Both the position numbers and the translations under genes were made by a program. DNA of 32,000 nucleotides from Nostoc sp. PCC 7120 = FACHB-418 (GTDB taxonomy: Bacteria; Cyanobacteriota; Cyanobacteriia; Cyanobacteriales; Nostocaceae), in assembly GCF_000009705.1 (NCBI RefSeq), contig NC_003272.1:870001-902000 (forward strand), given 5' to 3'. The notes under the pieces are model-generated. The model searched no databases. It had not been told where the DNA came from and was given only the letters and a program-made list of their open reading frames with translations. Of the stretch, positions 3,073 through 16,573 are shown piece after piece. The first letter of the stretch is position 1. Every line of letters starts with the position of its first letter.

Positions 3073-3339
3073 ATTCAAAATTCAAAATTCAAAATTCAAA
3101 ATTAATAGTACTTACGCAAACAGGTTATCTGTTGAGACTGGGTGTAAGGGGTTCAAGAATTTATACCCTGATACCCCTACACTCCTATACCCTTGTCCAA
3201 ACTTTTGATCTTTCGTTTTCATGCGTAAGTTCTAATTAAGAAAGCCTGGTTTTCTAGGGGTTTTCAAGTTGATCGTAAATTCAAGGGTTTAAATCCCCAA
3301 ATCCAACTGTCTTTAATTTTGAATTTTGAATTTTGAATT
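3073..3339. repeat. Composite nested-palindrome element filling the hoxE-hoxF spacer
   Basis: The outer arms are (ATTCAAA)x4.4 at 3073-3103 and (AATTTTG)x3.6 at 3315-3339, which are reverse complements. The middle arms are ACTTACGCA at 3110-3118 and TGCGTAAGT at 3222-3230. The core at 3140-3194 is copy 2 of the GGGTGTAAGGGG / ACCCCTACAC..ATACCCTT hairpin. Confidence 0.7.
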
Positions 3340-3379
3340 GTTAAATTTGTTGCCTTGTTGTGGAGAGTTGAGAGAAAAC

Positions 3380-5014
3380 ATGGAACTGACTGAATTACTA
3401 GACATTGGCAGACAAGAACGCTCTCAACAGAAACCTGTGCAGATTCGCTGCTGTACGGCGGCTGGTTGTCTGTCTGCGAATTCGCAAGCGGTTCAACAAC
3501 AGTTAGAGCAGGCCGTCAAGGCTGAAGGTTTAGAGGGAGAGGTACAAGTCTCTGGTGTTGGTTGTATGCGCTTGTGTTGTCAGGGGCCTTTGGTTGAGGT
3601 AGAGGGGAGTGGGGAAGAAAAAACAAAACAAAGGCTTTATGAGAAGGTTACGCCTGAAGATGCGTCAGCAATTATTGGTGCTTTGAAGGGGAAAGAGGCA
3701 CAATTGTCAGTTGTTAACTTAGAACAGCCATTTTTTACTTATCAAGCACCAATTGTTTTAGAGAATAGTGGCAAAATTGACCCAGAAAGGATTCAAGCTT
3801 ATATTGCGGCTCAGGGTTATCAGGGGCTTTACCAAGTGTTGCGGGAGATGACACCGGCGGCAGTTGTAGACAGTGTTAGTCGTAGTGGTTTGCGGGGGCG
3901 TGGTGGTGCTGGTTATCCCACGGGCTTGAAATGGGCGACGGTGGCTAAGGCGAAGGGAGAGCGCAAATTTGTCATCTGTAACGCAGATGAGGGAGATCCA
4001 GGGGCTTTCATGGATAGGAGTGTGTTGGAAAGTGATCCGCATCGGGTATTGGAAGGAATGGCGATCGCTGCCTATGCTGTCGGTGCTAGTCAAGGTTATA
4101 TTTATGTCAGGGCAGAATATCCCATTGCCATCAAACGCCTACACACTGCCATTCATCAAGCCCAAAGGCTCGGTTTGTTAGGTAGTAATATATTTGAGTC
4201 TCCCTTTGATTTTAAAATCGATATCCGCATCGGTGCAGGGGCTTATGTATGCGGCGAAGAAACAGCCTTGATGGCTTCCATTGAAGGTAAACGCGGTGTC
4301 CCTCATCCCCGTCCTCCCTACCCGGCTGAATCTGGTTTATGGGGTTATCCTACTTTAATTAATAACGTCGAAACATTCGCCAATATTGCCCCCATTATTC
4401 GTAAAGGTGCGGACTGGTTTGCTAGTATCGGCACGGCTAAAAGTAAAGGGACAAAAGTATTTGCTCTCGCTGGCAAAATCCGCAACACAGGCTTAATTGA
4501 AGTGCCAATGGGTACATCCTTGCGGCAAATAGTGGCAGAAATGGGTGGTGGTATTCCCGATGGTGGTGTTGCCAAAGCTGTACAAACAGGTGGCCCTTCT
4601 GGGGGATGTATTCCCGCTTCGGCTTTTGATACTCCTGTAGACTACGAATCTTTAACTAACTTGGGTTCCATGATGGGTTCTGGTGGGATGATTGTCATGG
4701 ATGACACCACCAACATGGTAGATGTTGCCCGATTTTTTATGGAATTTTGTATGGATGAATCCTGCGGTAAGTGTATTCCTTGCCGGGTGGGGACGGTACA
4801 ACTACATGGATTATTGAGCAAGATTCGGGAAGGTAAGGCTTCACTTGCTGACTTAGAACTGTTAGAAGAACTGTGCGATATGGTAAAAAATACCAGCTTG
4901 TGCGGTCTAGGTCAGTCTGCGCCTAATCCGGTATTTAGTACATTGCACTATTTCCGCGATGAATATTTGGCGTTGATAGCTGTAGGAGCCGTTTCTCTAA
5001 ATTCAACAGATTAA
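3380..5014 (+). CDS. hoxF: Bidirectional hydrogenase diaphorase subunit HoxF (NuoF-like, NAD(P)H/FMN binding)
   Basis: NuoF motifs are present: [32 protein letters not shown] and [12 protein letters not shown], with an N-terminal thioredoxin-like 2Fe-2S domain. I place the start at the ATG at 3380 (MELTELLD). The TTG at 3326 in the ORF track lies inside the heptamer repeat. Confidence 0.9.
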
Positions 5015-5160: not shown

Positions 5161-5556
5161 TCAGCAAATTGTTTTGATGTGTGGATAGTTGAGAACTTTT
5201 TGATCGCAGGTCATGAGTTCTATATTGCGGCGGTAGGCGATCGCAACAATAATACGATCAGCTGGGTCTTTGTGGAAGTCGCCAGGTAATTGGGTACTAG
5301 TAATTGCATCAAGTGGATCGAGTGGTTCTATAGTAATTCCAGGTCGAGTTTTTGCCAGCGCAAACCATTCATTGATGGGAAGGGGGAGTGGTAGTTTCCC
5401 ATTACTATGCTTGATTGCAATTTCCCAAACAGAAATAGCAGAAACAATAAGGGCATTTTGGTTTTCGCCTATGGTTAATAGGGTACGTCCACTCTCAGAA
5501 AGTTGTTCTGGGGAATGGAGCCACCACAGCCAAATGTGGGTGTCTAGCAAAATCAT
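5161..5556 (-). CDS. vapC: Type II toxin VapC (PIN-domain ribonuclease)
   Basis: MILLDTHIWLWW... carries the PIN acidic residues (LLDTH; ...SVWEIAIK...; DPADRIIVA). The ATG at 5556 overlaps the upstream antitoxin stop in an ATGA arrangement. Confidence 0.85.
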   Translation of the reverse strand: MILLDTHIWLWWLHSPEQLSESGRTLLTIGENQNALIVSAISVWEIAIKHSNGKLPLPLPINEWFALAKTRPGITIEPLDPLDAITSTQLPGDFHKDPADRIIVAIAYRRNIELMTCDQKVLNYPHIKTIC

Positions 5557-5819
5557 TGTCCCAAAGCATCCCATAATTCAGGCATGGGTTCGTCAAAATC
5601 TGGAGGAATTGTCAAGGGGATTTTGCGTAGGGGATGCTGAGGAGAGCGATCTGCTGAAAGCAGCAGCGCTTCGCTATCGCTCTTTAAATCAATTGCATCA
5701 GGGGTTGGAGATGGGGGTGATGATTGCACTGTAAGACTTTGAGCTAAAATTTGAAAGATGCGAATCCTTTCTGCTAAGTCGAGGCTGAGAAGTTGTTGCT
5801 CTAGTTCTTGATTGCTCAT
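5553..5819 (-). CDS. Antitoxin partner of VapC (addiction-module component-like)
   Basis: The 88-aa product runs from the ATG at 5819: MSNQELEQQLLSLDLAERIRIFQILAQSL...IPPDFDEPMPELWDAL. It is small, lies upstream of the PIN toxin, and overlaps it by 4 nt. Confidence 0.6.
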   Translation of the reverse strand: MSNQELEQQLLSLDLAERIRIFQILAQSLTVQSSPPSPTPDAIDLKSDSEALLLSADRSPQHPLRKIPLTIPPDFDEPMPELWDALGQ

Positions 5820-5993
5820 AGCTTTGCCCCTAATGACTGTGTTATTTATTTTAGCGGAACTCTCCAATCTGTCCGATGACACATAACGCGATCGCACTCT
5901 CCAAAAACCAAATGCGATCGCATCTATGCACTTCATCCCAAAGTCCCAGTCGTTGTAGGATGGCAAAGACAATATTTTTGGTATATACTATAA

Positions 5994-6269
5994 ATGGGCT
6001 TTGAGTGGGACGACAACAAAGCCGAATCAAATTTTTTGAAACACGGTATCAAATTCGAGGAAGCTGTAACAGTTTTTGCCGACCCGTATCTCATGTTTAC
6101 GGAAGACTCTATTCATTCTCAGGGAGAAGAAAGGGAATGGGCAATTGGTGAAGCGGAAGATGGGTCAATTGTTGTGGTTGTTTTTACCATGCGAGGTGAG
6201 CGAATCAGGATAATTAGCGCAAGAAAAGCGACCAAAAGGGAGTGTCAACAATATGAATCAGGAATCTGA
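5994..6269 (+). CDS. brnT: Type II toxin BrnT (DUF497 ribonuclease)
   Basis: MGFEWDDNKAESNFLKHGIKFEEAVTVFADP...IRIISARKATKRECQQY is the typical BrnT signature. Confidence 0.85.
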   Translation: MGFEWDDNKAESNFLKHGIKFEEAVTVFADPYLMFTEDSIHSQGEEREWAIGEAEDGSIVVVVFTMRGERIRIISARKATKRECQQYESGI

Positions 6270-6519
6270 GTTTCCTTTTGACAAAGCAAGACGAGTTACA
6301 CCAGAAGAAAATCAAAAATTCAGAGATGCGATCGCAGATCAGTTTGGGGTTACACTCAGGAAGCGCGGACGACCGGCTAAGGATGAAGAGGAAAAGTATG
6401 AGCCGATTTCAATCAGATTTCATCCTAAAATCATAGCCTGGGCAAAGGAAGAAGCAGAAAAGCGAGGGATAGGCTATCAAACGGTTATCAATGAAGCACT
6501 ATTGGAGAAAATAGGCTAA
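6253..6519 (+). CDS. brnA: Antitoxin BrnA (RHH/CopG-like)
   Basis: It overlaps brnT by 17 nt. The C-terminus ISIRFHPKIIAWAKEEAEKRGIGYQTVINEALLEKI is typical of BrnA. Confidence 0.8.
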   Translation: MNQESEFPFDKARRVTPEENQKFRDAIADQFGVTLRKRGRPAKDEEEKYEPISIRFHPKIIAWAKEEAEKRGIGYQTVINEALLEKIG

Positions 6520-6672
6520 AAATAAACGAAAGACTTACGTCGCGCCAGCTAGAACTTCGTTCAGCTTTCCTGCGGAACGCTGCGCGAACGCTAACGCATA
6601 AACTCATGGTCTAGTAAAAACTGCGTTCAGCTATCATAAAGGCATAATAAGTGAGCAAAGGTGGTGTAAATA

Positions 6673-6882
6673 ATGCAGACTGATAACATACCACAACAAA
6701 GATTAATCGGTAAAATCCGTCAGCTAGTTCCGGAACAAGTGGTATTAGTTGAAAGATTCATTGATTCTTTATCCCAGAAAAATGAGGAATACAATTTGAC
6801 TTTAGCTGCAACAAAGCTTTCTGAACCAGTTCTGCAAAGAATTTGGGACAACCCCGACGACGCAGAATATGACAAATTATAA
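6673..6882 (+). CDS. Antitoxin of the MazF/PemK-like toxin
   Basis: The 69-aa product overlaps the downstream toxin gene by 14 nt. It has an acidic C-terminus (IWDNPDDAEYDKL) common in such antitoxins. Confidence 0.6.
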   Translation: MQTDNIPQQRLIGKIRQLVPEQVVLVERFIDSLSQKNEEYNLTLAATKLSEPVLQRIWDNPDDAEYDKL

Positions 6883-7210
6883 ATTCGGGGATGTTATCTT
6901 AGTACCCTTTCCCTTCACCGACCAAACAACTACTAAAAAACGTCCATCTGTTGTTGTCAGTTCTACCGATTATCAACGTCAGCGTTCTGATTTAATATTA
7001 ATAGCTGTCACAAGTACTACTAATCCCGTAACTTCTTTTGCTGAAATGACAATTACTGAGTGGAAAGCAGCAGGTTTGTTAAAACCTTCTATTATCAAAC
7101 CAGTTTTAACTACCATTGATAAGATGCTGGTAATTAAGAAGTTAGGAGAACTCCAGGAAGTTGACACTCAAGCGTTACATAATCTTTTACAGATTATTTT
7201 GGGCGGCTAG
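6869..7210 (+). CDS. mazF: Type II toxin, PemK/MazF family endoribonuclease
   Basis: The GDVILVPFPFTDQTTTKKRPSVVVS ... LIAVTS pattern is typical of PemK/MazF. Confidence 0.8.
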   Translation: MTNYKFGDVILVPFPFTDQTTTKKRPSVVVSSTDYQRQRSDLILIAVTSTTNPVTSFAEMTITEWKAAGLLKPSIIKPVLTTIDKMLVIKKLGELQEVDTQALHNLLQIILGG

Positions 7211-7322: not shown

Positions 7323-10300
7323 CTATTTATTATCAGGGCAAATTTCTTTTCGCAAATCAGGACGGGAAGCGAGGTATTCTTTTAAATCGTTGCAACCTCG
7401 CGCTAGTAAGCTATCTAAACTTTGAACCCGACGCAACTGCACAAAATAATTACCTTCAATGGCAATTAATTTATTATCCGGGCTGAATACTACACGCCTA
7501 CTTTGATATTCAGCAAACTGCTGCCAAGAACCATCTCTTACCTCAGTCCACAGACGCACAGTACGATCTAGTGAAACAGTGGCAATAGTCTTACCATCAG
7601 GGCTAAATATTGGATCGCTGACTATAGTTGAACTGTTATGCTTGAGAGTGGCAATCTCCTGCCCTCGTAAATTCCATAACTTGACTGTTTTATCCCCTGA
7701 ACGAATACCAATAGTCTTGCCGTCTGGACTAAATGATATATGGTTGATCCAACCATCATGTGTGAGAGTAGCTATTTCCCTTCCTTGCAGATTCCATAAT
7801 TTGGCAGTATTACTCAACGTTGAAACCGTGGCAATAGTCTTACCATCAGGACTAAATAATACATCGCTAAAACTACCATGCTGGAGAGTGATAATTTCCT
7901 CACCTTTAAGGTTCCACAACTTCACAGATCCGCTAATATCTGAATCACGATACACTGAAGCAGTAGCAACTGTATGACCATCAGGGCTAAATACTACTTC
8001 CCCTAGATGCTTGTGTTTGAAAGTCGCAATTTCTTGTCCTTCTAGATTCCACAACTTTGCATTCTCATAAGAAGTAGTTAAAACAGACTTGCCATCAGGG
8101 TTAAATATTACTTCACGAACTCCACCCTCATTTGTGAGAGTAGCAATTAATTGACCTTGAAGATTCCACAGTTTGGCTGTGTCATCAGATGTGGCAATGA
8201 TATTACTGTCAGGGCTAAATACTACTTCTTTGTCAGGCTCATACTTGTGTTTGAGAGTAGCAATTAACTGACCTTGTAGGTTCCACAACTTAACTGTTTT
8301 ATCACTTGAAGTAGTAGTAGCAATAGTTTTACCATCAGGGCTAAATACTGCATCGTTGACTACGCCATCATGTTTGAGAGTGACAATTTCGCCTTTTTGA
8401 AGGTTCCACAGCTTTGCAGTACCATCGTATGAAGTAGTAGCAACAGTTTTTCCGTCAGGGCTAAATACTATATTGTTAATCTGATCGTTATGTTTGAGGA
8501 TACGAATGTTCCCACCTTGCAGGTTCCATAACTTGGCTGTACCGTCCGATGAAGCAGTGGTGATAGTTCTACCATCAGGGCTAAATGCTAAGTTTAAGAC
8601 TTGGCTATAATGCGTGAAAATTGCTATTTTTTTCCCTTGGAGGTTCCACAAATGGGCAGTATTATCAAGTAAAGCAGTTGCAATAGTCTGACCGTCAGGA
8701 CTAAACTCTAAACGGCTAATATCTTGAAATAGACCCTGATGCTTGAAAGTTCCGATGATATTTCCTTTAAGGTTCCACAAATTGACTGTTCCGTCATGTA
8801 CATAGGATGAAACAGTTGCAACAGTGTTACCGTCAGGACTAAATACTATATCCTCGACCTTATCGTTATGTTTAAGAGTTGCGATGGTATTTCCTTGGAG
8901 GTTGTACAAATTAACTGTTTTATCATCTGAATAAATGGCAACAACTTTACCATTAGGGCTAAATACTGAGTTCTTGATTCCTATATCAGGATAATATTTG
9001 AAAGTGGCAATTTCTTTTCCCTGCAAGTTCCACAGCTTAGTAGTTGCATCCCTCCGCGAAGTAGTCGCAACAACTTTACCATCAGGACTAAAAAATAGAT
9101 TATTAACAACGGAAAGATATTTTGTCATTTTGTTATGTATGATAGTGGCAATTTCCTTTCCTTGCAGATTCCACAGCTTGACATCGCTGTCGTATGAAGC
9201 AATGGCAACATTTTTACCGTCAGGACTAAATACTATATTTTGTACTAATGAGTCATATTGAAGAGTAGCTATCTCCCCTCCTTGGAGGTTCCACAACTTG
9301 GCAGTATCCCATGAAGCAGTACCAACAGTTTTACCATCGGGGCTAAATGCTACATCGTTAACCTCCTTGTTATGTTTGAAAGTAGCTATTTTTCCACCTT
9401 GTAGATTCCACAACTTAGCAGTACCGTCATCCGAAGCAGTAGCAACAATTTGACCATTGGGACTAAATGCTACGTTGTTGACCTTTTTGTCATGTTTGAG
9501 AGTAGTAATTGTCCCTGTTTGCAAGTTCAACAGCTTGGTAGTACCGTCATCTGAAATATTCGCAACAATTTTAGTATCAGGACTAAATACTTGCTTCTGA
9601 ACTCGACGGTCATCTTTTAATTGATTTATCTCGCGGTTATATTCTAAAGTATTGTGCAAGGCTAATATAGGGCTAACAGTTGGGTAATCTTTTAGTTGAT
9701 TACCATTTTTAACTAACTGTTTTAATTGCTTTACAGACCTCATCGCCTCAACTAAATTATCCAATCCCACATTCCCACGCAAGCGCAATAAATCAGCCGA
9801 TGACCGCTCTAAATCTGTGACAACTTGGGCTTGTTGTCGTTCTATGTTTGCACTAATCGCCCCAATTGCTGCTACTATTGCCCCAACAACAAATAAAGCT
9901 AAAATACCTCCACCAATGTTTATTTTTCTCTCGACTTCTGTTAATCGCTGCTTTGCCTTTTCTTCTTCCTGTAAAGCTTGATTTTGTCTAGTTTCCGCCT
10001 TCACAACCTTCTGATTTAACTCAGCTTCCACACTCGCAGATAAAAACCGATAATCAACATCGCTTAACTTTCTTCCATCCGCCCAAACACGAGCTTTTTC
10101 TAAATCTTCTCCCCACAATAAGCAAGTATTATCCTGATAATTACTCTCTACCCAAGCCCTTAATTTATCAGCATAAAAGCGTAACTTACCTAACTCATTC
10201 TCAACCCAACTTAAATCAAAAACATTCCTATAAATCTGGTTATAAACCCTTAATTTACCTTGCTGCTGTACTACCAAACCAGTCAAACGCAAGCGCATCT

Positions 10301-11312
10301 GCTCAAAGCTACTATCAGCAGTCATTTCTACCTGTTGTAAAATCTGCTGATATAACCCCAGCAAAGCAACAGAAATTTCCTCGCTAATTAGTAACCTGTC
10401 TCGAATCGTTTTTAAATGCTCTTGTTTATCGTTTGCTTCCCAATTATCAATAATTTGATTGTGAATAATTTCTTTAACTAATTCAATAATCTGATTTTCA
10501 TCAACAGACCTAAAATCTCGCTTTTCAATACTTAAAGCTTTCCCCAATAATTCACAAACTCTCTGAGTTAAAAATGGCTGTCCCCCCGTCCAAGCTAAAA
10601 CCTCTTGCATCACAGCTTGGGGATTTTCTACTTTTCCTGCTAATCCCTTGGCTAAAGGTTCAATGTCGTGAATCTTAAATCCATCTAACTCAATTGCTTC
10701 GCCAATATTAAAGGGGGTTCGGGTTTTATCTTGGATTAAATCACCGGGGGTTGCTACTCCTAATAAAGCAAAGGTCAACCGTTTATAAGCTGGATTTTCA
10801 GCACGTTTGTTATAACAACTTCTAATCAGAGCAAAAAAATCTTCGCTCGCAAATCCTAAACTCAGGGTACTATCAATTTCATCAACAAAGATAATAATAT
10901 GTCTTTGGATAGATGACAGAAGTACATCCTCAATAAATTCGTCAAACCTCTGCACGGGAGAAATATCATGGCGATCGCGCCACCAAGTCCGACGAAATTC
11001 GATGGGTTTGGCAATTTGCAAATCCTTGACAATTTTGGAAACAATACCTGTATACCATTGTTCCTGGGTGACGTTATCTTTGCTACCCTGCCCAGAAACA
11101 TCAATACTGGAACAAGCCACCCCTTCGTTGACAAGTCTTTGCATCACGCGAACTTTCAAGCTCGATTTACCCATTTGGCGTGAGTTAAAGACGTAACAAT
11201 ATTTACCCGCTTTCAAAGCTTGATAAAAATCAGAGTCGGCTTTCCTCACCACATAACTAGGCGCATCCGGGGGGAGACTTGCTCCAACTTGGTATTCGTA
11301 ATTGTCAACCAT
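7323..11312 (-). CDS. AAA-like (AAA_35/STAND-type) ATPase - coiled coil - hydrophobic helix - 18-blade WD40 repeat protein
   Basis: The product is 1329 aa. The N-terminus YQVGASLPPDAPSYVV..., Walker A NSRQMGKSS (GKS at 11163-11171) and Walker B IIIFVDEID are present. Helix INIGGGILALFVVGAIVAAIGAISA lies at 9849-9923. Eighteen FSPDG...KLWNLQG units occupy 7422-9590, and the C-terminal tail is SLDSLLARGCNDLKEYL. Confidence 0.85.
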   Translation of the reverse strand: MVDNYEYQVGASLPPDAPSYVVRKADSDFYQALKAGKYCYVFNSRQMGKSSLKVRVMQRLVNEGVACSSIDVSGQGSKDNVTQEQWYTGIVSKIVKDLQIAKPIEFRRTWWRDRHDISPVQRFDEFIEDVLLSSIQRHIIIFVDEIDSTLSLGFASEDFFALIRSCYNKRAENPAYKRLTFALLGVATPGDLIQDKTRTPFNIGEAIELDGFKIHDIEPLAKGLAGKVENPQAVMQEVLAWTGGQPFLTQRVCELLGKALSIEKRDFRSVDENQIIELVKEIIHNQIIDNWEANDKQEHLKTIRDRLLISEEISVALLGLYQQILQQVEMTADSSFEQMRLRLTGLVVQQQGKLRVYNQIYRNVFDLSWVENELGKLRFYADKLRAWVESNYQDNTCLLWGEDLEKARVWADGRKLSDVDYRFLSASVEAELNQKVVKAETRQNQALQEEEKAKQRLTEVERKINIGGGILALFVVGAIVAAIGAISANIERQQAQVVTDLERSSADLLRLRGNVGLDNLVEAMRSVKQLKQLVKNGNQLKDYPTVSPILALHNTLEYNREINQLKDDRRVQKQVFSPDTKIVANISDDGTTKLLNLQTGTITTLKHDKKVNNVAFSPNGQIVATASDDGTAKLWNLQGGKIATFKHNKEVNDVAFSPDGKTVGTASWDTAKLWNLQGGEIATLQYDSLVQNIVFSPDGKNVAIASYDSDVKLWNLQGKEIATIIHNKMTKYLSVVNNLFFSPDGKVVATTSRRDATTKLWNLQGKEIATFKYYPDIGIKNSVFSPNGKVVAIYSDDKTVNLYNLQGNTIATLKHNDKVEDIVFSPDGNTVATVSSYVHDGTVNLWNLKGNIIGTFKHQGLFQDISRLEFSPDGQTIATALLDNTAHLWNLQGKKIAIFTHYSQVLNLAFSPDGRTITTASSDGTAKLWNLQGGNIRILKHNDQINNIVFSPDGKTVATTSYDGTAKLWNLQKGEIVTLKHDGVVNDAVFSPDGKTIATTTSSDKTVKLWNLQGQLIATLKHKYEPDKEVVFSPDSNIIATSDDTAKLWNLQGQLIATLTNEGGVREVIFNPDGKSVLTTSYENAKLWNLEGQEIATFKHKHLGEVVFSPDGHTVATASVYRDSDISGSVKLWNLKGEEIITLQHGSFSDVLFSPDGKTIATVSTLSNTAKLWNLQGREIATLTHDGWINHISFSPDGKTIGIRSGDKTVKLWNLRGQEIATLKHNSSTIVSDPIFSPDGKTIATVSLDRTVRLWTEVRDGSWQQFAEYQSRRVVFSPDNKLIAIEGNYFVQLRRVQSLDSLLARGCNDLKEYLASRPDLRKEICPDNK
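7422..9590 (-). repeat. Coding tandem repeat (~120-138 bp units, 18 copies) encoding the WD40 blades
   Basis: A recurrent plus-strand motif CCATCAGGGCTAAAT (the reverse complement of FSPDG codons) appears with a roughly 123-bp period. It also generates spurious antisense ORFs. Confidence 0.85.
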
Positions 11313-11405
11313 TACTTTTTCAATTTCTCCAATTTCGGTTATCTAATTATTTCTTCTGAAAAAAAATAATTACGAAACAACCTCAAAAGCTTTTGTTATG
11401 TAAGT

Positions 11406-11541
11406 CAATACAGTTCAGTTAAAGCTAACAACTTAGACTAATGTAGGTTGGGTGAAGGAACGGAACCCAACATTATCAAGACTTTGTTGGGTTACGCTAT
11501 CGCTACACCCAACCTACTATTTTCTTAACTGAACTGTATTG
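11406..11541. mobile_element. MITE-like nested palindrome in the divergent spacer
   Basis: There are perfect 17-bp terminal inverted repeats: CAATACAGTTCAGTTAA at 11406-11422 and TTAACTGAACTGTATTG at 11525-11541. Inner 12-bp arms are GTAGGTTGGGTG at 11443-11454 and CACCCAACCTAC at 11506-11517. Flanking direct repeats TTATGTAAGT (11396-11405) and TTATATAAGT (11542-11551) match 9/10. Confidence 0.65.
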
Positions 11542-11577
11542 TTATATAAGTTTAGCCGAAGTGGGATTGTAAAAACT

Positions 11578-11645
11578 TTGAATTTGATTTGAATTTGATT
11601 TGAATTTGATTTGAGTTTGATTTGAGTTTTGTGAGTCTGATTTTT
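11578..11645. repeat. 11-nt tandem repeat (TTGAATTTGAT)x~6, degenerating 3'
   Basis: Three perfect units span 11578-11610, followed by TTGAGTTTGAT, TTGAGTTTTGT and GAGTCTGATTT. The array sits 60-130 nt upstream of the ATG at 11707. Confidence 0.8.
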
Positions 11646-11706
11646 AGGGGTTTATCTATAGCGAGAAATCCTCTAATCTGTTTGTATAGTTATTATCTAT
11701 GTCGTT

Positions 11707-13038
11707 ATGACTGTGAATCCAGAACCCATTAGGGTATTAGGTTTTAGGGTGCGTCAGGACTATATCAACAAAGTTAAAGCTGCCATGAAGACAGCTATGA
11801 TGAAAATGGGTAAGAAGAATCAGGAAACTTTTGCCTATGCAATTCAAATCGCTCCATCAACATTAAGTAGTTTTCTCAATGGTAAAAATGTCGCTCTGGG
11901 AACTTTCCAGCAAATTTGTCAAAGCTTAGATTTAAACTGGGAAGACATCGCAGATAGAGCAGATAACTCAATTACCCTTCCAGTTCTCCAATCTTCCGCG
12001 ACATCATCACCAATCCTCTCCCCTGATATGTCCATCAAATATCCAGAAGGGCCAGTTGCATTAGATTCCCCTTTTTATATTGAACGTCCCCCCACAGAAC
12101 AGGATTGTTACCGAGAAATTAGCAAACATGGCGCATTAATTCGCATCAAATCCGCCGAACAAACTGGAAAAACTTCATTACTAATTCGGATTCTGCACCA
12201 AGCACAAACAAAAGGCGATCGCACTGTTTATATCAGTTTAAAGGAAGCAGACAATCAATGTTTTATCAACTTAGATAAATTTCTGCGTTGGTTTTGTGCA
12301 ACCGTTAGCCGGAAATTAAAATTAGAAAATCGCTTAGATGAATATTGGGAAGATGATATTAGTTGCAATATGCGCTGCGAAACCTATTTTGAAGAATACA
12401 TCTTACCAGAAATAGGTCAACCATTAACCCTCGGCTTAGATGAAGTTGATAGATTGTTTGCATACCCCGATATTTACGGTGATTTTTTTGGCTTACTGCG
12501 ATATCTCCACGAAGAAGCTAGACGAGAGAATATTTGGCAAAAATTTCGCTTAGTCCTCGCCCATTCCACCGAAATTTATGTCCCTTTAGATATCAATCGT
12601 TCTCCATTTAATGCGGGTTTTCCTGTCGATTTACCAGAATTTAATTCACAACAGATAACCGAATTAGCCGAAAAACATCAATTAAATTGGGGTGAAAAAG
12701 AAGTTACTCAACTCACCTCAATGATAGGTGGACACCCGTTTTTAGTTCGTCTTGCTTTATATCATATCGCCCGTCAAGATGTCAGTTTAGATAAGTTTCT
12801 CCAAACAGCAGCCACCGACTCAGGGATTTACTCAAAACAGTTATATCGTCTCATGTCCGCCCTCGAACAACAACCAGAACTATTAGCAGCAATGCGAGAA
12901 GTTGCAAAAGCAAATCATCCTGTACAGTTAAGCGCCGAAATCAAATTCAAATTACAAGCAATGGGATTAGTCAAAATCACAAATGATGGTGTGATACCCA
13001 GTTGTGAATTATATCGACAATATTTTCAAAATTTTTAA
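11707..13038 (+). CDS. HTH (XRE-like) - AAA-like (AAA_35/STAND-type) ATPase
   Basis: The product is 443 aa. The HTH segment ETFAYAIQIAPSTLSSFLNGKNVALGTFQQICQSLDLNWEDI maps to about 11818-11955. Walker A is SAEQTGKTS (GKT at 12166-12174) and Walker B is LTLGLDEVD (DE at 12439-12444). It shares the PFNAG and GGHPFL motifs with the 1329-aa neighbour. Confidence 0.8.
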   Translation: MTVNPEPIRVLGFRVRQDYINKVKAAMKTAMMKMGKKNQETFAYAIQIAPSTLSSFLNGKNVALGTFQQICQSLDLNWEDIADRADNSITLPVLQSSATSSPILSPDMSIKYPEGPVALDSPFYIERPPTEQDCYREISKHGALIRIKSAEQTGKTSLLIRILHQAQTKGDRTVYISLKEADNQCFINLDKFLRWFCATVSRKLKLENRLDEYWEDDISCNMRCETYFEEYILPEIGQPLTLGLDEVDRLFAYPDIYGDFFGLLRYLHEEARRENIWQKFRLVLAHSTEIYVPLDINRSPFNAGFPVDLPEFNSQQITELAEKHQLNWGEKEVTQLTSMIGGHPFLVRLALYHIARQDVSLDKFLQTAATDSGIYSKQLYRLMSALEQQPELLAAMREVAKANHPVQLSAEIKFKLQAMGLVKITNDGVIPSCELYRQYFQNF

Positions 13039-13148
13039 TTCCCTGTTTGTTATGAATTCAGCATGAACTGAAGGTGAAAATATTCTATTTATATTCAAAA
13101 GAAATTTAGACCAGTTTCAGAGCGAAACACCTATCATTCCATTGTTCT

Positions 13149-13646
13149 ATGAAATTGTCGAGTTCAACAGACAATTTCATGTTACAAGCATTCAGCAACA
13201 AACAAATCAAAAACCTCACAGCAAGCGCAGTCTTCGCTGTTCTCTCCCTCACATCAACCGTAGTTCGTGCAAACGATGGCCCATATATTGATCAAGTCAA
13301 AAACCAGTTATTCAGAGCAGCATTTGCATCTGGTTTAAATGGTTACACTTTAACTCACGAACCTACCATTGATACCCTCCGTGAAGGTCGCTCCCACTAT
13401 ATAAACGTAAATCTGCGTGCAGGTATTTCCTATGGGATTGTGGGAGTTTGTGACAGCGATTGTCAAGATTTAGACATTTCTCTCTATGATCACCGAGGAA
13501 ACTTGATTGCTTCAGATTTACAAGATGATGACATTCCCATGATTAGCTTCAATCCCTCTCGAAGCGGTAGATATCAAATCCAAGTTGATATGGCTAATTG
13601 TAATGCTAATACTTGTTACTACGGCGTGGGTGTATTTGGTCAATAA
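13149..13646 (+). CDS. Small secreted/periplasmic protein with 4 Cys, function unknown
   Basis: It has a signal-peptide-like N-terminus (LTASAVFAVLSLTSTVVRA|NDG). The mature part is beta-rich with two Cys pairs (GVCDSDCQD, ANCNANTCYYG). An alternative start is the ATG at 13179. Confidence 0.55.
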   Translation: MKLSSSTDNFMLQAFSNKQIKNLTASAVFAVLSLTSTVVRANDGPYIDQVKNQLFRAAFASGLNGYTLTHEPTIDTLREGRSHYINVNLRAGISYGIVGVCDSDCQDLDISLYDHRGNLIASDLQDDDIPMISFNPSRSGRYQIQVDMANCNANTCYYGVGVFGQ

Positions 13647-13721
13647 GCCAAAATTCAGTAGACGGAAAAGTTTGGCGATCGCTACCCCCACTGAAGGTAT
13701 CACTAAAAATTTGATCAACCT

Positions 13722-13752
13722 TCACAAGTTCCTCAAACTCTTCACCTATAAC
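13722..13752 (+). promoter_or_regulatory. Predicted promoter module of the hoxU-hoxY-hoxH cluster (copy of the 1838-1868 module; -10 box TATAAC)
   Basis: TCACAAGTTCCTCAAACTCTTCACCTATAA is 27/30 identical to 1838-1867. TATAAC sits at 13747-13752, which predicts a TSS near 13759. Confidence 0.5.
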
Positions 13753-13816
13753 TCAAGGTGTGAGTGATGAATTATGACACCAACCAAAGGCTAATTCTCA
13801 ACCAGGGCTAAGAGCA

Positions 13817-14533
13817 ATGTCAGTCAAAACTTTAACAATTAACGACCAACTCATTAGCGCTCAAGAGGAGGAAACCTTACTACAGGCGGCGCAAGAGGCG
13901 GGGATTCATATTCCGACACTGTGCCATTTAGAAGGGGTTGGTGATGTGGGTGCTTGTCGGCTGTGTTTGGTGGAAATTACTGGTAGTAACAAATTGTTAC
14001 CGGCTTGTGTCACGAAAGTTGCCGAAGGGATGGAAGTTCGCACAAATAGCGATCGCCTACAAAAATACCGTCGTACAATTGTCGAAATGCTTTTTGCTGA
14101 GGGCAATCACATTTGTTCTGTTTGCGTGGCTAATAATAATTGCGAACTGCAAGACCTAGCCATTGAAATGGGCATGGATCATGTGCGTCTAGAATACCAT
14201 TTCCCAAATCGCAAAGTTGATATTTCTCACGATCGCTTTGGTGTTGACCATAACCGTTGTGTACTTTGTACTCGCTGCATCCGTGTTTGTGATGAAATCG
14301 AAGGCGCACACACTTGGGATATGGCAGGTAGGGGAACAAACTCTCACGTAATTACCGACCTCAGCCAACCTTGGGGAACCTCTGACACTTGTACTTCCTG
14401 CGGTAAATGCGTCAATGCTTGCCCCACAGGAGCTATATTCTACCAGGGTTCCAGCGTTGGAGAAATGAAACGCGATCGCGCCAAACTCGATTTTTTAGTC
14501 ACAGCACGGGAAAAACAGCAATGGAACCTTTAG
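13817..14533 (+). CDS. hoxU: Bidirectional hydrogenase diaphorase subunit HoxU (NuoG-N-terminal-like Fe-S protein)
   Basis: It has a 2Fe-2S ferredoxin-type N-terminus ([19 protein letters not shown]...ACVT). It also has 4Fe-4S motifs [13 protein letters not shown] and [15 protein letters not shown]. Confidence 0.9.
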
Positions 14534-14647
14534 AGAGAGATGGGGAAGGAGAAGAGGCAAGGGAGCAGGGGGCGGGGAGCGGAGGGGAGACGTTACTTAA
14601 AGTCCCTTCTCTTCCCTCGTCCCTAAGAAAACCAGGAGGTGAAACTG

Positions 14648-15238
14648 ATGAGCAAAACTACCAGACAAGCAACAACCAGAAGCTACAAGAAGACTCGATT
14701 CCCATTGTCGATGTGCTTATCTCCCACTTCTTTAAAAGCTCTGTTTTGGTGGCTGCTATTGTTGGGGATAATGACACTATATATATTCCTGGGTTTAGGA
14801 AGCCTAACCTCGCAAACAGTAATTGCTGCTGTCAATCAGTCAGAAGCAGCATCAAAAGAAATTCTTTATCGCTCACTCACAAAATTAGATGATCAATTAG
14901 GACACGTTTGGCAGGTTGTACTATTCAAGCAAGTTTATCCTGGTCAAGCCCAAACTGTAAATCTGCGGCTCGTAGGCTTTCCCGGTTCTGCCGAGTTACC
15001 TCATCCCCAACCCTTAAAGATTACCACTGCCACAGGCAAAGTTTTGACTGCTGCCGATGTGTTCCTAGATGAAGCACCAGCACCAACTATCGGTCAGTAT
15101 GACTTTAAAGATATATTGCCCCAACTATCCATAGAACCGTTAGTTTTAAGTATCCCTTTACCCGGCGATACCATCAATATTTCAGTCCCCCAACGGGTAG
15201 TCCAAGATTGGCAGAAAGTCATCAATGGGGAGTCATGA
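14648..15238 (+). CDS. Cyanobacterial membrane-anchored protein of unknown function embedded in the hox operon (possibly DUF3122)
   Basis: The ATG at 14648 lies 9 nt after AGGAGG (14634-14639). The protein has a basic N-terminus, one hydrophobic helix (LKALFWWLLLLGIMTLYIFLGLGSL) and a ~130-aa soluble domain. Confidence 0.6.
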   Translation: MSKTTRQATTRSYKKTRFPLSMCLSPTSLKALFWWLLLLGIMTLYIFLGLGSLTSQTVIAAVNQSEAASKEILYRSLTKLDDQLGHVWQVVLFKQVYPGQAQTVNLRLVGFPGSAELPHPQPLKITTATGKVLTAADVFLDEAPAPTIGQYDFKDILPQLSIEPLVLSIPLPGDTINISVPQRVVQDWQKVINGES

Positions 15239-15958: not shown

Positions 15959-16573
15959 ATGTTAAAAGCATCAGACGTTATGACAAAAGATGTGGCTACT
16001 ATTCGTAGTTCCGCAACTGTAGCTGAAGCCGTGAAATTAATGCGCGCTAGAGATTGGCGGGCGCTAATTGTAGACCGTCGCCACGAACAAGATGCTTACG
16101 GCATTATTAGTGAGAGCGATATTGTTTATAAAGTCATTGCCTATGGTAAAGACCCTAATAAAATACGAGTTTACGAAGTCATGAGCAAGCCTTGTATCGC
16201 TATCAATCCCGACCTTGGTTTAGAGTACGTAGCTCGATTATTTGCTGATTACGGTCTCCACAGAGCGCCTGTGATTCAAGGCGATTTGCGAGGTATTATC
16301 TCTCTGACTGATATTTTGGCTCAGAGTGACTTTCTGGAACAGCCCTACACCATTCTATTAGAACAACAATTACAAGACGAAATTAAAAAAGCTCGTGCTG
16401 TGTGTACTCAAACAGGGATTAACTCCGAAGAATGCGCCGCCGCCTGGGATGCAGTGGAAGAAATGCAGGCAGAAATAGCACACCAACGAGCCGAAAAAGT
16501 TAGCAAAACCGCTTTTGAAGATTACTGCGACGAGTACCCAGAGGCGTTAGAAGCTCGGCTTTATGAATTGTAG
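15959..16573 (+). CDS. CBS-pair protein fused to a C-terminal CP12 domain (CBS-CP12)
   Basis: The N-terminal ~125 aa form a CBS pair. The C-terminal part reads C149-x9-C159-AAAWDAVEEM...FEDYCDEYPEALEARLYEL. It has the CP12 core AWD.VEE and the C-terminal box, with the second Cys replaced by Ala. Confidence 0.8.
   Translation: MLKASDVMTKDVATIRSSATVAEAVKLMRARDWRALIVDRRHEQDAYGIISESDIVYKVIAYGKDPNKIRVYEVMSKPCIAINPDLGLEYVARLFADYGLHRAPVIQGDLRGIISLTDILAQSDFLEQPYTILLEQQLQDEIKKARAVCTQTGINSEECAAAWDAVEEMQAEIAHQRAEKVSKTAFEDYCDEYPEALEARLYEL

Follow-up and report, generated by a model that had tools for sequence, protein, structure and literature searches.

Paralogous AAA_35 NTPases encoded by a divergent gene pair of Nostoc sp. 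PCC 7120: a candidate two-gene NLR-like module

Genes and genomic surroundings of the locus

The window analyzed here is a 32-kb stretch of the genome of Nostoc (Anabaena) sp. PCC 7120 (NC_003272.1, positions 870,001 to 902,000), and the locus of interest is a trio of genes, all0759 (gene B), alr0760 (gene A) and alr0761 (Table 1). The products of A and B were found to be exact matches to PCC 7120 proteins. An earlier reading of the DNA without database searches (the sequence-only reading) had delimited the same three open reading frames of 1329, 443 and 165 aa, as well as the 394-bp spacer from which A and B diverge and the 110-nt gap between A and the 165-aa ORF.

Table 1. Coordinates of the genes and features of the all0759–alr0760–alr0761 locus (positions in the window).
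Feature	Position	Strand	Basis or details
Gene B, all0759, BAB72716	7323..11312	-	1329 aa; ORF, Pfam AAA_35 and WD40, exact PCC 7120 protein match
WD40 array and Cys-x22-Cys C-terminal tail	7326..9605	-	17 clear blades and 1 degenerate; Pfam WD40 E = 1e-101
Predicted transmembrane helix, aa ~466–490, IGGGILALFVVGAIVAAIGAISANI	9843..9917	-	Charged helical stretch just before
B-type AAA_35 NTPase module, aa 12–365	10218..11279	-	Pfam; Walker A GKS, Walker B DEID, TPFNIG, GGQPFLTQ
Divergent intergenic region B/A	11313..11706	.	394 bp
Nested palindrome, arms 17, 15, 12 nt	11406..11541	.	MITE-like insertion
11-bp direct repeats, helically phased, TTTGAATTTGA x ~5 and a degenerate unit	11577..11643	+	64–130 nt upstream of the A start codon
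Gene A, alr0760, BAB72717	11707..13038	+	443 aa; ORF, Pfam, exact PCC 7120 protein match
Cro/C1 (XRE) helix-turn-helix, aa 32–83	11800..11955	+	HTH_26 26.7 bits, cut-off 22; effector slot of the A-type family
A-type AAA_35 NTPase module, aa 112–442	12040..13032	+	NBD, helical domain (GGHPFL), winged-helix-like C-terminus; Pfam E = 1e-147
alr0761, BAB72718, exported PPC-like beta-jelly-roll protein	13149..13646	+	28-homologue alignment, model, fold matches

As had been noted from the letters alone, toxin genes adjoin the trio, and the accessory block that contains it splits the hox locus. The neighbours are PIN, BrnT/BrnA and PemK toxin–antitoxin genes, and the block sits between ORFs assigned to hoxF and hoxU on the basis of their translations and published tags. 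The G+C content is 0.38–0.41 over 7–13 kb of the window vs. 0.43–0.47 outside. Rfam and tRNA scans of the window returned no match. No terminator was predicted between A, alr0761 and hoxU, the counts of the consensus promoter/terminator scan being within shuffle expectation.

The three toxins had been put forward, along with the HTH paralogue and the secreted protein, as a possible output of the system, and of these proposals the one concerning the toxins did not hold. Among the other trios, only that of Scytonema (L001) is accompanied by BrnA, the antitoxin and PemK. PemK matches were found at only 2 other loci, and the remaining trios have different toxin–antitoxin families or none. The toxins are island neighbours and not components of the AAA_35 system. 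Orthologous trios elsewhere adjoin genes for ATP synthase, Band_7, UbiB or glycosyltransferases, and one of them (L083) adjoins Tn7-like genes. Since trios are found in genomes in which no hox genes adjoin them, it is unlikely that the primary function is that of a dedicated hox regulator, and the hox context of the trio is incidental.

Family membership and predicted fold of the NTPase modules

Pfam analysis placed both proteins in AAA_35 (PF14516), the family recognized in the sequence-only reading, with 109.4 bits for B (aa 12–365) and 491.5 bits for A (aa 112–442) at a cut-off of 27. All of the motifs reported earlier are present in the translations, namely Walker A NSRQMGKSS, Walker B IIIFVDEID, TPFNIG and GGQPFL in B, and SAEQTGKTS, LTLGLDEVD, SPFNAG and GGHPFL in A. 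The two modules share 22% identity over 237 aa (E = 1e-14), in agreement with the view that both proteins contain the same P-loop module. The Walker A (GK[ST]) and Walker B (hhhhD[DE]) motifs are intact in A and B, and are at least 90% conserved among 82 A-type and 76 B-type modules; the same level of conservation was observed for the B-type module motifs as a whole.

A GxP motif is diagnostic of the STAND class of NTPases. In the family it is near-invariant, being GGHP(F/Y)L in A and GGQPFL in B. In the AlphaFold model of the A-type module (pLDDT 84), a helical bundle is followed by a helix-plus-beta-hairpin C-terminus. The best Foldseek match was PABY2304 (E = 2e-9), and the top matches mix PABY2304 and ORC2/Cdc6 with Avs3, Avs4, Roq1, MalT (8bob), CED-4, RPP1 and Sr35, with TM-scores of 0.4–0.63 that do not separate STAND from ORC/Cdc6. 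Based on the GxP motif and the STAND/ORC fold matches, a STAND-like nature of the AAA_35 modules is supported by the model. The NLR/Avs likeness proposed earlier is supported by motif and fold matches, but not as a single-chain architecture as in Avs: the fusion of effector and repeat sensor that characterizes STAND proteins is found here spread over two proteins, with effectors in A and sensors in B.

The family is large (~7,200 clusters at 50% identity), and more than 3,300 of the 8,000 candidates scored are close relatives of the A protein. As the sequence-only reading had presumed, no characterized family with an assigned role emerged from the Pfam, PADLOC and NCBIfam HMM libraries. When the three proteins were compared to PADLOC models, only spurious partial matches were obtained (WD40 to HEAT-ARM_XIII; AbiEi and ThsA at E > 1e-4), and the NCBIfam scan yielded nothing relevant. 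A PDB sequence search returned just local matches to the P-loop (RecA) and the HTH (HipB). In the literature searched, no mention of PF14516 was found and the text search for 'AAA_35' gave noise; the family is not mentioned in the texts of Kaur 2020 and the 2026 STAND census (main text).

Alr0760, the putative output partner

Gene A stops at its NTPase module and, according to Pfam, has no sensor domain. The XRE-like HTH that had been noticed at its N-terminus was confirmed by a HTH_26 match above the cut-off; HTH_3 is precomputed in many orthologues, and the nearest solved HTH is that of HipB. In the A-type family, the module is almost always located at the extreme C-terminus, and the N-terminus is variable. 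Among the 52 A-type N-termini scanned, TIR_2 (31), CHAT (10), sigma70_r4/GerE (9) and Pkinase (8) domains prevailed, with Trypsin_2 (2), Guanylate_cyc (2), Peptidase_C14 (1) and EAD4 (1) being rarer. Since paralogous A proteins fill the same slot with TIR, CHAT, kinase, caspase, trypsin, cyclase or EAD4 domains, the HTH of Alr0760 is, judged by its position, the effector thought missing. No canonical toxic effector had been missed in A or B, and the slot tally favors the HTH among the outputs that the sequence-only reading had considered.

All0759, the putative sensor partner

Neither an N-terminal effector domain nor an output domain was found in B by Pfam. In B-type proteins the ATPase module comes first and the C-terminus varies: WD40 repeats were found in 16 of 30, other C-termini being TPR, CHASE2, Peripla_BP_6, 7TMR-HDED+HD, HisKA+HATPase_c, Trypsin_2, CHAT, NACHT and TRADD-like_N. 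The 18 WD40 blades counted earlier correspond to 18 FSPDG-type units (one of them degenerate) with a mean identity of 51%. Orthologues of B range from 704 to 1369 aa, and the number of WD40 repeats varies among them.

The hydrophobic helix mentioned in the earlier reading is a strongly hydrophobic stretch (Kyte–Doolittle 19-aa peak, 2.64), and 41 of 57 B-type proteins have an equivalent transmembrane helix. The residues flanking this helix show a positive-inside bias (K+R, 3.9 in the N-flank vs. 2.0 in the C-flank; p = 7e-6), and the Cys density of the WD region is lower in the B proteins of the transmembrane type (p = 0.02). These features suggest that the WD40 array of B, the predicted sensor, is probably extracytoplasmic, with an N-in/C-out topology.

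Export of a ~770-aa WD40 array by means of a signal-anchor helix located 465 residues from the N-terminus is unusual. In addition, about a quarter of the WD40-type B proteins have no transmembrane helix, and cytoplasmic STAND proteins are among those that contain the linker-plus-WD40 cassette. Thus, the helix could serve membrane association or oligomerization instead of spanning the membrane.

Pairing of A- and B-type genes

Whether A- and B-type genes co-occur beyond chance had been set beforehand as a test of the sequence-only reading, and co-occurrence was observed both in genomes searched from A and in metagenomes searched from B. At 64 of 80 A-seeded genome loci, a B-type gene lies within 10 kb; it is within 1.5 kb at 50 of these and within 300 nt at 38, and stop and start codons overlap at 11. 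As for the 16 unpaired loci, nine are on contigs cut within 2.2 kb downstream. Among the B-seeded metagenome loci, counted only where at least 2.5 kb of upstream sequence was available, 44 of 54 have an A-type gene, located upstream of B in 43. About 10–20% of the loci with adequate flanks have no partner.

The two subfamilies split cleanly (E ~1e-100 to 1e-200 to their own type vs. 1e-7 to 1e-19 to the other). The distances between partners correlate (r = 0.74), a value reached in none of 2000 Mantel permutations; as such a mirror-tree correlation is expected for any tightly linked genes, it indicates joint inheritance and not contact. Ten proteins are fusions of the two modules, seven in the order B-A and three in the order A-B; some of these may be assembly or frameshift artefacts, yet they belong to ten different clusters and occur in both orders. 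The A-B two-gene design recurs throughout cyanobacteria, and the pairing is not due to chance.

Repeats of the intergenic spacer

The spacer had been described as filled with repeats, and of the two elements recognized in it, an 11-bp array and a hairpin, only the array is conserved. About five copies of the 11-bp tandem unit span positions 11577–11631, and the array is kept in all five orthologous spacers, in which the flanking sequence has diverged. Arrays with a period of 10 or 11 were detected upstream of 10 of 21 HTH-type A genes vs. 3 of 62 genes of other types (p = 2.7e-5), or 6 of 17 vs. 3 of 62 when the five closest trios, which are not independent, are counted once. By eye, three phased TCGAG/TCGAC units each were recognized at loci L004, L005, L006 and L008. 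The 11-bp array is the likely operator of the HTH-AAA_35 protein, which would bind to it. As the motif has no further copy elsewhere in the 32-kb window, no other target can be named. Alternatively, the HTH could bind elsewhere, or a different factor could occupy the array, as a FurC box is predicted that overlaps the start codon; the sequence published for the FurC box of alr0760 was located at 11697–11715.

The large hairpin at 11406–11541 was rejected as a functional element. It is missing from the orthologous spacers of L001, L002 and L082, that of L081 has a different palindrome at another position, and no second copy was found in the window. By these comparisons, the hairpin is a non-conserved MITE-like insertion that lies outside the system.

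The exported protein Alr0761

The four Cys residues to which the sequence-only reading had drawn attention in the 165-aa protein are invariant in 28 homologues. The true start of Alr0761 is probably Met11 (13179), and the predicted signal peptide probably ends at VRA(41). The structural model matches the C-terminal jelly roll of a subtilase (E = 5e-6), the collagen-binding domain of ColH and a PPC domain. No PF04151 match was obtained for Alr0761 itself at E ≤ 0.01; seven of its homologues have a precomputed PF04151 match, weak where graded. The protein has been detected in the exoproteome of PCC 7120 (PMC10957091).

In all seven AAA_35 trios examined, representing at least five distinct genomic contexts, the alr0761 gene is located just downstream of A (at most ~0.7 kb). 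Homologues of Alr0761 are confined to Nostocales, and are also found near nSTAND1-WD40 genes with no AAA_35 gene present. Thus, Alr0761 is not a core part and, by its distribution, is a lineage-specific accessory of the A/B subfamily.

Comparison with known systems

In NAIP/NLRC4 and in the plant pairs RGA5/RGA4 and RRS1/RPS4, one NOD paralogue senses and nucleates, and the other, with the signalling domain, is recruited by means of NOD-NOD contacts; plant NLR pairs are typically head-to-head neighbours. The pair studied here resembles these systems in the proposed division of labour over two paralogous NOD proteins and, as in plants, in the head-to-head arrangement of the genes. It differs in that the modules are AAA_35 and not NACHT or NB-ARC, the host is bacterial, the putative output is an HTH, the B-type sensor usually has a transmembrane helix and sensor domains of extracytoplasmic type, and hetero-oligomerization is proposed by analogy.

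With Avs and bacterial NACHT proteins, the pair shares the logic of effector, NTPase and repeat sensor, a similar NBD-HD-WHD fold, and TIR or protease effectors in paralogues. However, each Avs is one polypeptide whose TPR-like sensor recognizes phage terminase or portal proteins in the cytoplasm, whereas the A/B pair is split over two genes, with WD40 repeats behind a predicted transmembrane helix, an HTH output and no PADLOC match. Compared to MalT and the AfsR/SARP family, in which the sensor repeats belong to the same polypeptide, Alr0760 lacks such repeats and is accompanied by a separate sensor paralogue; its HTH is N-terminal and of the Cro/C1 type.

A similar organization has been described for nSTAND2 (Kaur, Iyer, Burroughs & Aravind 2021, eLife, PMC8195603), a predicted bacterial two-gene operon with two STAND cores, a proposed hetero-multimer and variable effectors. 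One of the two nSTAND2 proteins, in which the NTP-binding motifs are eroded, bears GT4 or HEPN, and the listed examples are from Gammaproteobacteria. In contrast, A and B both keep Walker A and B, and the effector set and the cyanobacterial host range are different; no GT4 or HEPN domain appears in the A-type or B-type domain tallies. Identity with nSTAND2 was rejected, as hhalign of the A-type profile against an nSTAND2 sequence gave a probability of 0.8%, with only the GxP stretch aligned.

According to the account given in PMC8195603, the MNS clade of STAND proteins includes an 'Npun2340/2341 family' (Leipe, Koonin & Aravind 2004), named after two adjacent genes of Nostoc punctiforme, and Kaur et al. 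(PMC8195603) list it among the NTPases at the centre of conflict proteins whose effectors are TIR, caspase, trypsin and kinase domains. This family may be the same as Pfam AAA_35. In the literature searched, no description of a sensor/output division of labour, transmembrane topology or HTH operator was found.

Proposed mechanism and alternative explanations

With a probability that we put at roughly 0.55, all0759/alr0760 is one case of a widespread cyanobacterial two-gene module, an NLR-like switch split over paralogous STAND-like NTPases. B would be the sensor half, with a cytoplasmic N-terminal NTPase, one transmembrane helix and a WD40 array facing the periplasm, and A would be the output half, composed of the N-terminal Cro/C1 HTH and the NTPase module with nothing further. 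A ligand bound by the sensor domain of B would free or activate its NTPase module, which would then nucleate NTP-dependent co-oligomerization with the A module, so that the N-terminal domains of A become clustered. In paralogous pairs, clustering would activate TIR, CHAT/caspase, kinase or cyclase domains, whereas at all0759/alr0760 several HTH domains would assemble on the 11-bp repeats, one helical turn apart, upstream of alr0760. Transcription of alr0760-alr0761 would thereby be switched, possibly with read-through into hoxUYH. The hetero-oligomerization and the signalling direction from B to A are modelled on NAIP/NLRC4 and the plant NLR pairs. Alr0761 may have an accessory role in the periplasm, where it could be a ligand, co-receptor or modulator of the pair.

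The occurrence of TIR, CHAT, caspase, trypsin and EAD4 domains, all classic immune effectors, in paralogous pairs suggests another explanation, namely an anti-phage abortive-infection STAND defence like Avs/bNACHT, in which B recognizes a phage component and death or dormancy follows. The fold resembling Avs3 and Avs4, the position of the trio amid toxin–antitoxin genes in a low-G+C block, the Tn7-like genes beside L083 and the variable WD40 repeat number are consistent with it. However, the putative output of all0759/alr0760 is DNA-binding and not a toxic effector, PADLOC models have no relevant match, and the sensor is predicted to be outside the cytoplasm, where terminase or portal recognition of the Avs type is impossible. 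Environmental sensors (CHASE2, periplasmic-binding domain, 7TM receptor, histidine kinase) are also found among the B-types. On the whole, an anti-phage role is considered unlikely.

These receptor-type sensors in B, together with the signalling outputs in A (kinase, cyclase, sigma-r4/LuxR and XRE HTH), would fit a general transmembrane signalling module by which filamentous cyanobacteria respond to cell-cell or environmental cues, a third kind in addition to one- and two-component systems and unrelated to biological conflict, which would tune alr0760-alr0761 and perhaps hoxUYH. A shift to low CO2 has been reported to repress alr0760-alr0766 strongly as one cluster (PMC7699953), a calcium response has been described for alr0761 (PMC4915528), and the absence of predicted terminators up to hoxU points in the same direction, but the co-regulation may reflect read-through or shared LexA/redox control. 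Moreover, an output slot dominated by TIR and CHAT is typical of conflict systems and not of housekeeping signalling, and trios lacking hox genes nearby argue against a dedicated hox role, so this explanation, too, has a low probability.

Local duplication that left two adjacent paralogues acting alone, A as a MalT/AfsR-like STAND transcription factor and B as an independent WD40 protein, is very improbable: solo STAND transcription factors exist, MalT is among the fold matches and some loci have no partner, but A has no sensor and B no output domain in the window, the anciently diverged subfamilies are adjacent across cyanobacterial orders in both search directions, and overlapping codons and fusions in both orders link them.

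To return to the split NLR-like switch, a wider form of it is doubtful and is offered tentatively: cyanobacteria would hold a large class, so far undescribed, of transmembrane NLR-like receptors that work in pairs. In these, a membrane-anchored sensor NOD, with its WD40, CHASE2 or periplasmic-binding domain on the outside, would nucleate the polymerization of a cytoplasmic NOD paralogue, and the clustered N-terminal domain of the latter would carry out the response, by TIR, protease or kinase in most pairs. At all0759/alr0760, the HTH oligomer would dock on the 11-bp iterons, and Alr0761 would be the extracellular ligand or co-receptor. Such receptors would be the bacterial equivalent of NAIP/NLRC4, with signalling across a membrane.

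Implications

AAA_35 is a large family with no assigned role, and the A/B split offers a testable logic as to which protein senses and which acts. If the proposed mechanism is true, a division of labour between sensor and helper, as in animal NAIP/NLRC4 and plant paired NLRs, would exist in prokaryotes, and a STAND switch would be coupled to an extracytoplasmic sensor. Compared to TIR- or protease-bearing paralogues, all0759/alr0760 is a convenient entry point because of the tractable strain PCC 7120, the putative non-lethal (transcriptional) output and the candidate operator. The locus also bears on hox biology in PCC 7120, since hoxUYH follow immediately after alr0760-alr0761 and have been reported to share their regulation.

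Gene and Domain Content

The three ORFs all0759 (B, the proposed sensor half), alr0760 (A, the proposed output half) and alr0761 were found exactly where the sequence-only reading had placed them, and every motif quoted there is present in the sequences. They encode proteins that match BAB72716, BAB72717 and BAB72718 of Nostoc/Anabaena sp. PCC 7120 exactly. The locus tags are based on these identities, the published tag of hoxH (BAB72723, alr0766; PMC2670836), the position of the FurC box, and a published gene list in which alr0761 immediately precedes hoxU, alr0762 (PMC4915528). Pfam analysis recovered the AAA_35 (PF14516), WD40 and HTH assignments made previously, the last as HTH_26, while alr0761 matched no Pfam family above threshold. 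PADLOC and NCBIfam scans of the three proteins gave no relevant match, and neither Rfam nor a tRNA scan gave any hit in the window.

Features of the locus (positions in window coordinates; residue numbers refer to the encoded protein)
Feature	Position	Strand	Remarks
hoxF (assigned)	3326-5014		
PIN toxin (a small ORF lies upstream)	5161-5574	-	
BrnT/BrnA	5994-6519	+	
Small antitoxin-like ORF and PemK/MazF toxin	6673-7210	+	
all0759 (B)	7323-11312	-	1329 aa; AAA_35, residues 12-365, 109 bits; WD40, E = 1e-101
Nested palindrome	11406-11541		arms of 17, 15 and 12 nt; contains GTAGGTTGGGT...ACCCAACCTAC
11-bp direct repeat array	11577-11643		TTTGAATTTGA, about 5 copies
alr0760 (A)	11707-13038	+	443 aa; Cro/C1 HTH (HTH_26), residues 32-83, 26.7 bits; AAA_35, residues 112-442, 491 bits
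alr0761	13149-13646	+	165 aa
hoxU (assigned)	13817-14533		

The ATPase modules of All0759 and Alr0760 align over 237 aa at 22% identity (E = 1e-14); judged from this alignment, they are true paralogues, as had been claimed, though distant ones. The 18 blades and the hydrophobic helix reported for All0759 also hold: its FSPDG-type WD units number 18, of which 17 are clear and one is degenerate (mean pairwise identity, 51%), and a very hydrophobic helix of 19-25 residues at about 466-490 separates the ATPase from the propellers. The number of WD40 repeats varies widely among orthologous B proteins, which measure 704 aa in Nostoc FACHB-110 (locus L081 7511-9625), 1329 aa in PCC 7120 and 1369 aa in Scytonema; this indicates that the blade array probably undergoes fast expansion and contraction.

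In the AlphaFold model of Alr0760 (mean pLDDT 84), a disordered linker joins a short helical HTH domain to an NBD, after which come a helical domain and an end resembling a winged helix. The model's top Foldseek match in the PDB was PABY2304, an archaeal Walker ATPase (E = 2e-9; TM 0.63), and the other best matches were ORC2/Cdc6, Avs3, the Roq1 resistosome, MalT, CED-4, Avs4, RPP1 and Sr35. At the level of the model, these matches, which mix STAND and ORC/Cdc6 proteins and do not separate the two, support the earlier label "STAND-like" for the AAA_35 module, together with a GG(H/Q)P motif that is near-invariant in such modules. A sequence search of the PDB found no relative.

Pairing of A-Type and B-Type Genes

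A profile (A1) built from HTH-AAA_35 relatives retrieved 80 loci from one-genome-per-species contigs, all of them cyanobacterial wherever the taxon is named, with a few from unclassified MAGs. When every ORF of these loci was searched with pieces of the window proteins, the AAA_35 modules divided cleanly into two types: A-type modules match that of alr0760 with E-values of about 1e-100 to 1e-190 and that of all0759 with 1e-7 to 1e-17, while B-type modules show the reverse pattern. Walker A and Walker B are kept family-wide in both types.

A B-type gene lies at most 10 kb away in 64 of the 80 A-seeded loci, at most 1.5 kb from A in 50, and at most 300 nt from it in 38; in 11 loci, the stop and start codons of A and B overlap. 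In nine of the 16 loci lacking a B-type gene, the downstream sequence extends for less than 2.2 kb. Most pairs (49) are co-directional, A then B, and 15 are divergent like the window pair, 10 of these being of the HTH type. Conversely, among B-seeded metagenome loci with at least 2.5 kb of upstream sequence, 44 of 54 harbor an A-type gene, which is upstream in 43 of them. The neighborhood comparison proposed by the sequence-only reading thus reveals co-occurrence from both directions. The divergences of the partners are correlated (r = 0.74), a value matched by none of 2000 permutations. Moreover, ten proteins fuse the two modules (seven B-A and three A-B), giving Rosetta-stone support for a putative physical association of A and B. 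At six loci (L035, L048, L053, L060, L068 and L079), a single A gene precedes a row of two to four B genes, and several sensors could therein act on one output partner. Tandem A-type modules (A-A) occur in some proteins of 747-767 aa (P0009-P0014).

Variable Effector and Sensor Slots

In A-type proteins, the ATPase module forms the C-terminal end and the N-terminus varies. Among the 52 proteins with at least 130 residues ahead of the module, the N-terminal domains are TIR_2 (31), CHAT (10), sigma-70 region 4 or LuxR HTH (9), Ser/Thr kinase (8), trypsin (2), nucleotide cyclase (2), caspase (1) and EAD4 (1), while N-termini of about 100 residues are Cro/C1 HTHs, as in alr0760. The first hint of an effector slot at this position came from P0109, an A-type relative (588 aa, 54% identity to alr0760) annotated with AAA_35 and TIR_2. 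In B-type proteins, the module comes first and the C-terminus varies, with WD40 found in 16 of 30 and TPR, CHASE2, Peripla_BP_6, 7TMR-HDED + 7TM + HD, HisKA + HATPase_c, trypsin, CHAT, NACHT or TRADD-like_N in others. Since A N-termini and B C-termini vary around fixed modules, the domain architectures place the effector slot on A and the sensor slot on B, that is, an NLR-like protein divided over separate chains. The pair had been described as having no recognisable effector; this is right in that no toxic domain is present, but the HTH of Alr0760 occupies the effector slot of its paralogues and can be regarded as the missing effector.

A strongly hydrophobic helix (Kyte-Doolittle ≥ 1.8) is present in 41 of the 57 B-type proteins having a sizeable C-terminal region. 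In WD40-type B proteins, about a quarter of which are without it, the helix is located about 50-100 residues past the ATPase module, ahead of the WD40 array. The mean number of K+R is 3.9 in the 15 residues before the helix versus 2.0 in those after it (33 WD40-type proteins; Wilcoxon p = 7e-6), the pattern expected of N-in/C-out topology, and the WD regions contain 0.42 Cys per 100 aa in helix-bearing proteins versus 0.97 in those without (p = 0.02). Three of the other B-type C-terminal domains (CHASE2, periplasmic-binding and 7TMR-HDED) are classic examples of extracytoplasmic sensors. From these features, the All0759 WD40 array is predicted to lie on the periplasmic side.

Spacer between all0759 and alr0760

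The spacer had been described as filled with repeats. The 11-bp array among them is conserved; Scytonema, Scytonematopsis and Tolypothrix lack the nested palindrome in their orthologous spacers. All five orthologous spacers keep the array as 3-5 copies of TTTGAATTTGA- or ATTCGAGTTTT-type units ending 59-95 nt ahead of the A start codon, with diverged flanking sequence; the motif is found nowhere else in the window. Arrays of period 10/11 lying no more than 150 nt from the start codon precede 10 of 21 HTH-type A genes versus 3 of 62 other A genes (Fisher p = 2.7e-5), or 6 of 17 versus 3 of 62 with the five close orthologues counted once. By eye, four more HTH-type loci with TATCGAGTACG, TATCGACTTTG and TAGTGAGATTG were noted. 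The core common to the repeat units is YGA(C/G). The array is a candidate operator of Alr0760, and a repeat of one helical turn fits several HTHs of one oligomer on one DNA face.

The palindrome has no second copy within the window and was treated as a putative MITE-like insertion. The spacer of Nostoc FACHB-110 contains an unrelated palindrome, GTAGGGTGCGTCAGT...ACTGACGCACCCTAC, at a different position, and both resemble small dispersed MITE-like repeats of Nostocales. For alr0760, a FurC (PerR) box has been predicted in the literature (CACAGTCATAACGACATAG; PMC10406281); it corresponds to the reverse complement of 11697-11715 and overlaps the start codon of that gene.

The Exported Protein Alr0761

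The 62 homologues of Alr0761 are all from Nostocales where named, and seven have a precomputed PF04151 (PPC) match. Most of them start at Met11 of the window protein; they have four invariant Cys and a hydrophobic signal-like stretch with VRA at its end. The core of the Alr0761 model (pLDDT >90) matches a subtilase C-terminal beta-jelly-roll (E = 5e-6), with other fold matches to GOLD domains, the periplasmic lysozyme inhibitor PliG, the ColH collagen-binding domain, and a PPC domain.

An alr0761-type gene directly follows A in the window and in L001 (Scytonema hofmannii), L002, L081 and L082, the latter four representing at least four genomic contexts, none with hox. It also directly follows A in Calothrix sp. 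PCC 6303, and in Dulcicalothrix it is found about 0.7 kb downstream, past two small ORFs; the divergent B partner of both has TPR + CHAT in place of WD40. A Trypsin_2 gene comes after the Calothrix trio (L083 7800-14474), and Tn7-like genes (Mu-transposase C, TniB and TniQ) lie about 4 kb beyond it. Two more distant homologues have no AAA_35 gene nearby; DUF1822 and CHAT-nSTAND1-WD40 genes lie 2-3 kb upstream of them (L085 873-7465 and L086 1200-7459), and in L086 a GT4-conflict glycosyltransferase comes after. The small exported protein is therefore associated with STAND-WD40 loci whose NTPases belong to two unrelated families. Alr0761 has been found in the PCC 7120 exoproteome (PMC10957091). 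Based on this detection, the Nostocales range and the linkage to STAND loci, Alr0761 is a lineage-specific exported accessory of such loci.

Genomic Context

As suggested by the sequence-only reading, the genes are part of an accessory block splitting the hox locus, situated between the ORFs assigned as hoxF and hoxU and lower in G+C than its flanks. The block also contains three type II toxin-antitoxin modules (PIN, BrnT/BrnA and PemK; 5161-7210) between hoxF and all0759. In Scytonema hofmannii, B is adjoined by genes closely homologous to those of BrnA, the antitoxin and PemK (L001 3326-4262; E = 1e-43 to 1e-69), a similarity exceeding that expected from the 72% identity of the A proteins. 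Genes for a DUF3122 protein (presumably alr0763; 14639-15238) and a CBS-CBS-CP12 fusion protein (presumably alr0765; 15959-16573) are interleaved with hoxU, hoxY and hoxH.

According to the literature, alr0760-alr0766 form one cluster that is strongly downregulated on a shift from 3% to 0.04% CO2 (PMC7699953), and alr0761 responds to calcium together with hox genes (PMC4915528). A weak scan predicted no terminator-like site on the plus strand at 13039-13816 (alr0760/alr0761/hoxU), and transcription starting at the alr0760 promoter may continue into hoxUYH. Because orthologous trios sit elsewhere in other genomes, the hox linkage is regarded as a probable consequence of the insertion site and not as a conserved function.

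Relation to Known Systems

Sensor and helper roles are divided between partners in NAIP/NLRC4 and in plant NLR pairs, and the A/B pair would follow the same logic by analogy. MalT/AfsR-type STAND regulators, like Alr0760, have a DNA-binding domain fused to the NTPase module (NOD), but Alr0760 is without an in-chain sensor. The predicted two-gene nSTAND2 operon shares the concept of the A/B pair, yet one nSTAND2 partner is inactive (PMC8195603), whereas Walker A and B are kept in both AAA_35 partners, and effectors and hosts differ. Identity of AAA_35 with nSTAND2 was rejected, with an hhalign probability of <1% and both partners predicted to be active. The pair is not an Avs system, since it consists of two chains and the PADLOC run proposed earlier returned no match for it. 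A passage in Kaur et al. cites the clade MNS (family Npun2340/2341) from Leipe et al. 2004, named after two adjacent Nostoc genes (PMC8195603); this family may be the same as AAA_35. The papers searched contain no mention of PF14516.

The strongest results are that A and B pair reciprocally across the family, with variable slots that complement each other, that some proteins fuse the two modules, and that a phased array resembling an operator is conserved. The original interpretation is both upheld and sharpened. The all0759/alr0760 pair appears to be a variant of STAND/NLR-like switches, in which the A and B modules would hetero-oligomerise, a signal would pass from outside to inside, and the HTH of Alr0760 would bind the 11-bp array. 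The system is found in a tractable model organism and lends itself to direct experiments.
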